Source: a phage. From it: 64,000 nucleotides of DNA. The notes beneath the pieces were generated by a model. That model made no database searches. It worked only from the letters and a program-made list of their open reading frames with translations, and was not told the origin of the DNA. Shown here piece after piece: positions 39,219-40,343 of the stretch. Location of the stretch: sequence record PZ445134.1; one strand, given 5' to 3'. Each line of letters opens with the position of its first letter. The stretch's first letter is position 1. The position numbers and the translations under genes are program-made.

Positions 39219-39494
39219 TTATTTCATATTATTGAAATAATCTTCAGCGATTTCGTCATTATCATGGTAAACTTTGGTAGACGATTTGGCGTAACCTTCA
39301 GCTGAGAACATATTAATCACAACCTTTATAGTATACCACTGTCCGTCTTCGTTACCCATTACTGCGTAAGTTTCAAACATCGGATGGTCAGGTCCAATAA
39401 CTTTAATATCATTCACCGTACGTCCGAAATCTTCTGGAACGCATTTCATAAAGAAGTTGAACATTTCGCCGTAATTATCCATTTCATTCTCCAA
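39219..39494 (-). CDS. hypothetical protein
   Basis: 91 aa ORF. Confidence 0.45.
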   Translation of the reverse strand: MENEMDNYGEMFNFFMKCVPEDFGRTVNDIKVIGPDHPMFETYAVMGNEDGQWYTIKVVINMFSAEGYAKSSTKVYHDNDEIAEDYFNNMK

Positions 39495-39517: not shown

Positions 39518-39556
39518 TAGTTGTATAGTACCACGGAAGAACAGGGATGTAAACAG
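39518..39556 (-). promoter_or_regulatory. early promoter
   Basis: minus strand GTTTAC, 17 bp, TACTAT. Confidence 0.5.
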
Positions 39557-39677: not shown

Positions 39678-39705
39678 GCCTAGATACTAAAAAGCCCCAA
39701 CCTTT
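39678..39705 (-). terminator. rho-independent terminator (copy 3 of 3 identical), downstream of tRNA region
   Basis: same 27-nt element aaaaagccccaacctttcggaaggggc. Confidence 0.65.
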
Positions 39706-39766
39706 CGGAAGGGGCTAAGCCTTGCGGCAACCTTGTCGGGGTTCCACCTACTAGGTAAGTGTTTGT

Positions 39767-39858
39767 ACGAAACGCCGGGATTCGAACCCGGTTATTAAGC
39801 AGTTGACGCTACTCAATATTTTTAAAAGGCCGTATCTCGGCCATATCCGAACGTTCCG
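39767..39858 (-). ncRNA. tRNA-like element (T-arm plus acceptor-like stem), possible small stable RNA
   Basis: minus strand CCGGG-TTCGAAT-CCCGG T-arm followed by CGTTTCG, which pairs with CGGAACG 85 nt upstream; no clean cloverleaf found by hand; no CCA. Confidence 0.3.
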
Positions 39859-40097
39859 TCAAAAACGCTACTCGGCTTACGGCAAAGATATTTCCTCGAA
39901 TCGATAATTCTGTGCGCCGTTTCTGCTGTGATGTAAGGGGATATTAACAAATCGTAAAGATTTATTAAGACCAGTCCTTACGCAGGGAACATCAGTCCGA
40001 CGACTTACCGGTAGCGACCCGGTTTCTTGTTTGGTGCGCCGGTGAATGCTGGTAATCAGTCTTCATACGACGGCTTGACTATATAATAGTCTTCATT

Positions 40098-40172
40098 TGG
40101 TATCCCGCCCTGGGATCGAACCAGGACCGCAAACTTAGAAGGATCGTATGCTATCCATTACACCAGCGGGAT
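40098..40172 (-). tRNA. tRNA-Arg (anticodon TCT)
   Basis: hand-folded cloverleaf: acceptor ATCCCGC/GCGGGAT, D-loop AATGGATA, anticodon loop CTTCTAA, T-arm CCTGG-TTCGATC-CCAGG, encoded CCA. Confidence 0.7.
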
Positions 40173-40177
40173 GTAGT

Positions 40178-40254
40178 TGGTGACCCCGACCAGATTTGAA
40201 CTGGTAACCTTTCCCTTATGAGGGGACTGCTGCTAACCATTGAGCTACAGGGCC
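40178..40254 (-). tRNA. tRNA with anticodon CAT (Met or Ile2-type), atypical D-arm
   Basis: acceptor GGCCCTG/CGGGGTC with two G-U pairs, anticodon loop CTCATAA, T-arm ACCAG-TTCAAAT-CTGGT, encoded CCA; D-stem pairs poorly. Confidence 0.5.
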
Positions 40255-40316
40255 TAAATAACTTTCTATTATGAAAGGCACTTTAGAGCACCTTTGGTAA
40301 TAGAGGGTATGAATTA

Positions 40317-40343
40317 ATAATAACACATAATTCTTAAAGCAAA
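40317..40343 (-). promoter_or_regulatory. candidate MotA-dependent middle promoter for the tRNA cluster
   Basis: minus strand TTTGCTTTA MotA box, 12 nt, TATTAT; about 55 nt upstream of tRNA at 40254. Confidence 0.4.

Follow-up and report, generated by a model that had tools for sequence, protein, structure and literature searches.

Identification of the operon and its two small stable RNAs

This analysis concerns a block of transfer RNA (tRNA) genes and adjoining noncoding sequence around positions 39,767 to 40,343 of a 64,000-nucleotide (nt) stretch of phage DNA (sequence record PZ445134.1), the whole of which is referred to below as the window. Judged by its sequence, the block lies on the minus strand and is a tRNA operon of the T4 type, belonging to a T-even phage that resembles RB69 (Mosigvirus), and its noncoding part carries orthologues of the two small stable RNAs of T4, species 2 RNA (rnaD) and species 1 RNA (rnaC). 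We consider this identity, and the anatomy set out below, to be very likely correct. A preliminary description of the sequence had guessed that 39767-40097 holds counterparts of the two T4 RNAs, and the guess was borne out, as T4 rnaD and rnaC aligned to it base for base. The element is already known as the species 1 and species 2 RNAs of T4, and the finding is in that respect a re-identification; what may be new is a fold of rnaC backed by covariation, a candidate kissing loop within it, a wider rnaD family and a shortened rnaD-like segment (mini-rnaD), all of them absent from Rfam 15 and from the literature searched.

The nearest genome was that of RB69 (96% identity over 8 kb); in all, 824 phage records matched, and the stretch holding tRNA-Arg, rnaD and rnaC was matched by 806 phage records. 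In the T4 record (NC_000866), the 119-nt rnaD (species 2) and the 139-nt rnaC (species 1) are annotated as misc_RNAs directly 3' of tRNA-Arg, and the window was colinear with T4 through tRNA-Arg, rnaD, rnaC, a trailer, a terminator and the e.8 promoter, with a mean column identity of 91%. The rnaC orthologue (139 nt; 39766..39904, minus strand) was 97.1% identical to its T4 counterpart; the rnaD orthologue (120 nt; 39911..40030, minus strand) was 87.2% identical and scored 161.5 bits with the covariance model R2, the two being separated on the same strand by a 6-nt spacer (39905-39910). Along the minus strand the order is a candidate MotA-box promoter, tRNA-Ile(CAU), tRNA-Arg(UCU), a 66-nt segment resembling a remnant of rnaD, rnaD, rnaC, a structured trailer and a terminator.

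The region had initially been divided differently. The part at 39859-40097 was described as one G+C-rich element of about 240 nt without an open reading frame (ORF); the absence of any ORF of at least 60 amino acids (aa) from it was upheld (the longest were of 42 and 34 aa), as was its G+C richness (45% in the rnaC-rnaD block, 39766-40096, against 37% in the window), but it is not a single element, being made up of the 5' 46 nt of rnaC, the 6-nt spacer, the 120 nt of rnaD and the 66-nt extra segment. Similarly, 39767-39858 does contain the canonical T arm claimed for it, but corresponds to the 3' 92 nt of the 139-nt rnaC and not to a separate tRNA-like element with an acceptor stem of its own. 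Fold z-scores were -3.6 for rnaC, -2.5 for rnaD and -3.3 for the extra segment, and the stretch is evidently not chance sequence. In permissive Rfam searches (the region at E<=10, and eight related loci), rnaC and rnaD matched no family, only the tRNAs and chance hits being returned.

Predicted fold of rnaC

A set of 31 distinct rnaC sequences was gathered, the sources being phage records as well as viral and metagenomic contigs, and a consensus fold was computed with RNAalifold on 18 homologues. In the resulting model rnaC is a tRNA-shaped RNA of four arms, the two ends of which form an acceptor stem stacked on a T stem. The 5' strand of the acceptor, CGAUUCG (positions 2-8; 39897..39903, minus strand), is predicted to pair with CGUUUCG (positions 131-137; 39768..39774, minus strand), which directly abuts the T stem, giving a 7-bp (base pair) end-to-end helix composed of C2-G137, G3-C136, A4-U135, two invariant U.U mismatches, C7-G132 and G8-C131. 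The pair 4-135 was A-U in 11 and G-C in 7 of the 18 homologues (11 against 13 when divergent, type-2 copies were included), and the tandem U.U mismatches (39899-39900 with 39771-39772; positions 5-6 and 133-134) were invariant in 31/31 distinct sequences. The T arm (39775..39791, minus strand) has a 5-bp stem, CCGGG/CCCGG, the third pair of which was exchanged from G-C to U-A among homologues, and a UUCGAAU loop.

The remaining two arms depart from the tRNA pattern. Where a tRNA has a 5-bp stem and a seven-nucleotide anticodon loop, rnaC has a stem of 10 bp capped by a loop of 6 nt, the hexaloop CGUCAA (arm at positions 87-112, 39793..39818, minus strand; loop at 39803-39808), and 9/10 pairs of this stem were changed on both sides among 25 distinct sequences. 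In the place of the D arm stands a long irregular hairpin with the apex UUGACG (positions 9-77; 39828..39896, minus strand; apex at 39857-39862). Over the whole fold, 99.6% of cells were paired in the 18 homologues, with double-sided changes at 12 pairs against 1-2 in slid controls; in a joint alignment with the type-2 copies, 98.6% of cells were paired and 16 pairs had changed on both sides. The covariance model R1, derived from this fold, scored the window rnaC at 165.6 bits and recovered the type-2 copies, from Kanagawavirus, Moonvirus, Gelderlandvirus and Klebsiella phages, at 73-91 bits. A first fold of rnaC drawn by hand, with small hairpins AGGA/UCUU and GGCCG/CGGCC, lost to the global fold on pair counts and was discarded.

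The two terminal loops of these arms are predicted to contact one another. CGUCAA in the hexaloop and UUGACG at the apex of the long arm are exactly complementary, and the stems beneath vary while the loops stay invariant. Among the 31 distinct sequences, UUUGACG occurred with CGUCAA in 25 and UUUGGCG with CGCCAA in 6, and no mixed combination was seen; the Klebsiella-phage copies carry CGCCAA and UUGGCG, an exchange of U-A for C-G. We regard a 6-bp kissing contact between apex and hexaloop as a reasonably probable feature of rnaC. If it is formed, rnaC would have no free anticodon-like loop, and its likeness to tRNA would be limited to the acceptor/T-arm limb.

At the 3' end, the tail GU[A/C]CAA (39763-39767) was invariant in 31/31 distinct rnaC sequences, and a true CCA was encoded only by the Klebsiella-phage copies. 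As a separate observation, the DNA of the rnaC T arm, GGTTCGAATCC (39775-39791), matches GGTTCRANTCC, the core of the recognition site of SegB, a homing endonuclease (PMC2330249). No segB is present in the window, which holds only two of the eight tRNA genes of T4.

rnaD and a putative shortened paralogue

For rnaD, the architectures obtained from the single sequence and from the consensus agreed. A 5' hairpin, P1 (ACCGG-GUCGCUA-CCGGU), is followed by a rod closed by P2 (GUCGUCG/CGGCG-CA) and continued by P3 (UGUU/AGCA), P4 (UAAGG/CCUUA) and a variable distal hairpin, with conserved internal loops GGACUGA/GAAAC and CCCUG/AUCAC. By eye, no convincing resemblance of these internal loops to a K-turn, to sarcin-ricin or to SRP-like motifs was found. 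The distal hairpin was replaced wholesale in UP19-type phages. A pairing of the P1 loop with rnaC was also considered and was dropped, the two RNAs occurring independently.

A search with model R2 additionally brought up divergent rnaD-like elements, with E values between 1e-8 and 1e-3, in phages of the Karam, Moon and Klebsiella types, where they follow tRNA-Asn immediately (L005 2642-2754, L033 103-215, L017 785-896, L036 335-445, L034 555-708 and L040 109-262, the L numbers denoting related loci). Their P1 stems are of wholly different sequence, the innermost pair of P2, G39-C123, is C-G in place of G-C, and all of them contain YCCCUG. Together with the replaced distal hairpin, these divergent copies lend some additional support to the predicted fold. 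The elements are unannotated or lie under coding sequence (CDS) calls, and the P1 hairpin of the Klebsiella-phage copies is about 45 nt longer.

The T4 order of tRNA-Arg and rnaD is kept in the window, but a 66-nt segment absent from T4 (40031..40097, minus strand) lies between them. It is predicted to form a hairpin, GACUAU-UAU-AUAGUC, followed by a short stem (-16.4 kcal/mol), and among related loci it was found only in L003, L016, L028 and L029. When compared by eye, the blocks AAG, CGUCG, GACUGAU, CAGCA and CGGCGCAC(CA) occur in it in the same order as in rnaD; MAFFT aligned only the 3' block, CGGCGCAC. The segment is probably an internally deleted paralogue of rnaD, or mini-rnaD. In RB69 (NC_004928), this junction of tRNA-Arg and rnaD is likewise interrupted, by ORF150c.

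The tRNA genes and the transcription unit

Exactly two tRNA genes were found in the window by ARAGORN, at the very coordinates folded by hand beforehand, and both passed the Rfam check against the RF00005 gathering score of 29 bits. These are tRNA-Arg(UCU) (40098..40172, minus strand; 49.7 bits) and a tRNA with anticodon CAU (40178..40254, minus strand; 55.4 bits), each with an encoded CCA. The former differs by 1 nt from T4 tRNA-Arg. The latter was labelled Met by ARAGORN; it is nevertheless predicted to be an isoleucine tRNA, charged with Ile and reading AUA by means of a modified C34, because it shares 73/74 nt with T4 tRNA-Ile, in agreement with the assignment of the pair to AGA and AUA codons in the preliminary description. 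Its sequence contains the C4-G69 and C5-G68 pairs, which are determinants of TilS recognition. The D stem of this tRNA, said earlier to pair poorly, shows a single C.C mismatch when aligned to the Rfam model; the remark was a mild overstatement, as the D arm is identical in T4 tRNA-Ile. Both codons are common in the long ORFs of the window, as had been claimed (AGA 9.4 and ATA 13.7 per 1000), and their use is several-fold higher than in E. coli.

Upstream of the tRNAs, a pattern match placed a candidate T4 middle (MotA-box) promoter, TGCTTTA-N12-TATTAT, at 40317..40341 (minus strand). The fuller match, TTTGCTTTA-N12-TATTAT at 40317-40343 (minus strand), agrees with the MotA consensus, (a/t)(a/t)TGCTTtA about 12 bp before TAnnnT, and the identical sequence precedes tRNA-Gln in T4 and the tRNAs in RB69. 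The pattern occurred 12 times in the window, where shuffled sequence would be expected to give 3.4; the minus strand holds most of these matches, which fits a middle-gene region. No late promoter, TATAAATA, was found within the unit, the nearest on the minus strand lying about 3 kb upstream.

Downstream of rnaC, folding identified a 3' trailer (39717..39765, minus strand) with the hairpin CACUUACC-UAG-UAGGUG at 39745-39761, in which one A-U pair of the window is G-C in T4. The same trailer follows rnaD in VR5 and UP19, both of which are without rnaC. An intrinsic terminator, consisting of the G+C-rich hairpin GCCCCUUCCGAAAGGUUGGGGC and UUUUU, follows at 39688..39716 (minus strand) and is conserved in T4; it was overlooked by a simple terminator scan because its stem contains an internal loop. 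With the promoter match and the hairpin both conserved in T4, sequence and conservation support the earlier suggestion that promoter, block and terminator form a single predicted transcription unit. Just past this terminator, a sigma-70-like promoter (TTTACA-17-TACTAT with a TG extension; 39525-39553, minus strand), also conserved in T4, precedes an e.8 homologue (CDS 39219-39483).

Distribution in other phages

The two RNAs were found apart from each other as well as together. In EcS1, AS6, SonariX, CF-SP2 and ABTNLPp2, rnaC occurs without rnaD between tRNA genes, filling the inter-tRNA gap. Conversely, rnaD occurs alone in the Providencia phage PSTCR6, between tRNA-Arg and tRNA-Ile, and before the trailer in VR5 and UP19, from which rnaC is cleanly missing. 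The rnaC-only and rnaD-only arrays indicate that the two are separable modules of T-even tRNA arrays, present in several Tevenvirinae genera.

Searches beyond phages were negative. Among 185,579 species genomes of bacteria and archaea, a loop-independent rnaC pattern yielded no genuine copy, and in metagenomes it was found in T4-like contigs only; blastn detected neither rnaC nor rnaD in 5,426 E. coli genomes. The sole species-genome hit was rejected as spurious, being GC-rich and coding-like, with no covariance model match and no tRNAs. A bacterial or host origin was considered and found to be unsupported by the species-genome, metagenome and E. coli searches.

Existing annotation of the region is uneven. 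The 3' 95 nt of rnaC are annotated as 'tRNA-Met' in SonariX (PQ898399; L033 1256-1350) and in PG7 (KJ101592 75844-75875), a call that ARAGORN repeats, and 'hypothetical protein' CDSs overlie rnaC or rnaD in many records (for example L036, L040 and L005). In the RB69 reference (L002; 2454-2592, 2599-2718, 2715-3059, 1723-2285), rnaC and rnaD are present yet unannotated, and ORF148c/149c stand after rnaC.

Possible functions and alternative explanations

In T4, rnaC and rnaD are expressed and accumulate late, as shown by Northern blot (PMC9697503), the demonstration of a stable rnaC of about 140 nt being confined to T4. A convergent single nucleotide polymorphism (SNP) near position 41 of rnaD was reported to change virulence on ECOR34 from 0.17 to 0.98 (PMC12685909), and this position falls in the predicted helix P3. 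The tRNA region of T6 acts in counter-defence, and T-even tRNA regions are counter-defence loci (PMC13096335). No functional assignment was found in the literature searched on species 1 and 2 RNA, p2Sp1 and tRNA-like anti-defence RNAs in T4.

From the predicted fold and the biology of RNase P (PMC11143913), it can be envisaged that RNase P would cleave the polycistronic transcript 5' of rnaC and of each tRNA, and that exonucleases would trim the 3' ends back to stable stems, which would explain why rnaD and rnaC accumulate. Displaying only the acceptor/T-arm half of a tRNA, rnaC would then act as a mimic that cannot be decoded, and could bind, titrate or recruit a factor recognising that half, most plausibly a host factor of tRNA-directed defence or processing. 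For its part, rnaD would act independently, as a rod-shaped RNA that partners a different factor and affects fitness in a host-specific way. We put forward this combination, of a non-decodable mimic titrating or recruiting a factor and an independent RNA with a host-specific role, as a tentative proposal. A more specific version, which we consider rather unlikely, is that rnaC is a tRNA mimic locked into a ring by the kissing loop and serving as a decoy against host immune effectors or toxins that read the acceptor end or the elbow, with rnaD as a second countermeasure; were it true, it would explain both the upkeep of these RNAs across several Tevenvirinae genera and the ability of a point mutation in rnaD to open a semi-permissive host.

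A number of points weigh against this account of the operon, of its folds and of their function. Deletions of the T4 tRNA region are viable on laboratory hosts, and any function of rnaC or rnaD would therefore have to be conditional. The ends of both RNAs in the window were transferred from the T4 annotation by homology, and the 3' tail encoded by the window rnaC is ACA instead of CCA, which argues against its aminoacylation. Among close relatives of rnaD, although 99.2% of cells were paired, the helices were mostly invariant and only 2 pairs had changed on both sides, while the kissing contact in rnaC rests on a single compensatory event in one Klebsiella-phage lineage. Finally, the function of species 1 and 2 RNA has been called unknown (PMC3014915), and neither has a known binding partner.

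The main rival to the mimic proposal is that rnaC and rnaD have no trans-acting job and are cis-acting processing 'punctuation' or stable by-products, that is, spacers directing the cuts of RNase P and exonucleases, shielding the 3' end of tRNA-Arg and insulating the operon from e.8. This would account for the position of rnaC and rnaD, which always lie flush against tRNAs or the terminator, for the possession by rnaC of exactly the features that RNase P requires, and for the coincidence of the ends of rnaD with neighbouring processing sites; loss of the tRNA region is also tolerated in laboratory hosts. However, the hexaloop, the long-arm apex, YCCCUG and AAGUCGUCG remain invariant over changing stems, a constraint beyond the needs of a spacer, and ordinary tRNA spacers in the same arrays measure only 2-10 nt. 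A single rnaD SNP, moreover, altered host-specific virulence (PMC12685909). On this evidence we hold the rival explanation to be possible but somewhat doubtful.

It was also considered whether rnaC and rnaD might act in trans as small RNAs, regulating mRNAs of the host or the phage by base pairing, as would suit abundant late RNAs (PMC9697503) with conserved single-stranded motifs. We judge this improbable, since the two best-conserved loops of rnaC complement each other and are not free, and both RNAs are processed, neither having a terminator-type 3' end. There was likewise no match in the 5,426 E. coli genomes, in a search by blastn that sees similarity and not short antisense seeds.

A further explanation takes the first anatomy literally, with 39767-39858 as a free-standing degenerate or pseudo-tRNA and 39859-40097 as a separate G+C-rich spacer RNA. 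A local 8-bp stem, ACGGAACG/CGUUUCGU, can indeed be drawn, the corresponding 95 nt in copies of the SonariX/PG7 type are called 'tRNA-Met' by ARAGORN, and a weak match to tRNA-Sec exists, yet 39767-39858 itself received no call as a tRNA from ARAGORN or RF00005, tRNA-Sec being the best match at 15.4 bits (E=6; gathering score 47). When checked against related phages, the local acceptor (positions 46-53 with 131-138) was broken by an A.C mismatch in 6/18 homologues and had no compensatory change, whereas the end-to-end stem covaries cleanly; the 5' strand of the local stem takes part instead in a long-arm helix that covaries. The T4 RNA is, in addition, annotated at 139 nt. The local acceptor was therefore rejected, and this explanation is very improbable. 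Small proteins, as annotated in several GenBank records, scarcely merit consideration, for despite ORFs of 42 aa (39822-39950, minus strand) and 34 aa (39803-39907, plus strand) and 'hypothetical protein' features over the region in many records, 1- and 2-nt indels fall inside these ORFs among close homologues, substitutions keep pairs and follow no codon pattern, and the T4 products are known as RNAs.

Significance and comparison with known systems

The species 1 and 2 RNAs have gone for some 50 years without an assigned function (PMC3014915), are missing from Rfam and have been misannotated as 'tRNA-Met' or as proteins. The comparison of homologues yields hypotheses that can be tested, namely an rnaC fold with a probable kissing lock, an rnaD family situated by tRNA-Asn, and the independent inheritance of the two modules. 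Together, the counter-defence role of tRNA regions, the rnaD SNP and the fold model make the question of function directly testable.

The closest known systems are the T4 RNAs themselves. The window rnaC shares 135/139 nt with T4 rnaC (NC_000866 70908-71046) and has the same predicted fold and synteny, lying between rnaD on one side and the same trailer, terminator and e.8 on the other; it differs by four substitutions, three of which turn a G.U into a G-C pair in the long arm, and in nothing functional. T4 rnaD (NC_000866 71053-71171) has 87% identity to the window copy, with the same helices and conserved internal loops, but a different distal hairpin sequence and a 3' end of CACC where the window has CACA.

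Canonical tRNAs (RF00005), including class II tRNAs and tRNA-Sec, are resembled by rnaC in its end-paired acceptor set on a 5-bp T stem, its UUCGAAU loop, its four arms around one junction and its genomic place in tRNA arrays. Unlike them, it has neither a D arm nor a 7-nt anticodon loop, its hexaloop is apparently sequestered, its acceptor contains two U.U mismatches, most copies lack an encoded CCA, and both RF00005 and ARAGORN are blind to it.

Partial mimicry of tRNA, by a T arm and an acceptor-like helix that are not decoded, is shared by rnaC with YrlA (RF02553) and with the tRNA-like domain of transfer-messenger RNA (tmRNA). The YrlA model gave no match on rnaC or rnaD at E<=10, nor in eight related loci at E<=1, and the Rfam tmRNA model gave none on rnaC. 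The ends of YrlA form a Ro-binding stem whereas those of rnaC are predicted to form an acceptor; tmRNA has G3.U70 and CCA and is charged, whereas rnaC has neither G3.U70 nor CCA. Lastly, the M3 RNA of phi80 and the C4 RNA of P1/P7 are phage small RNAs processed by RNase P (PMC11143913), and, like rnaC in the pathway proposed here, they are released through a tRNA-like end helix. C4 RNA is an antisense regulator, whereas rnaC bears no sign of an antisense role, and the likeness between them is one of processing, a relationship in sequence not being expected.

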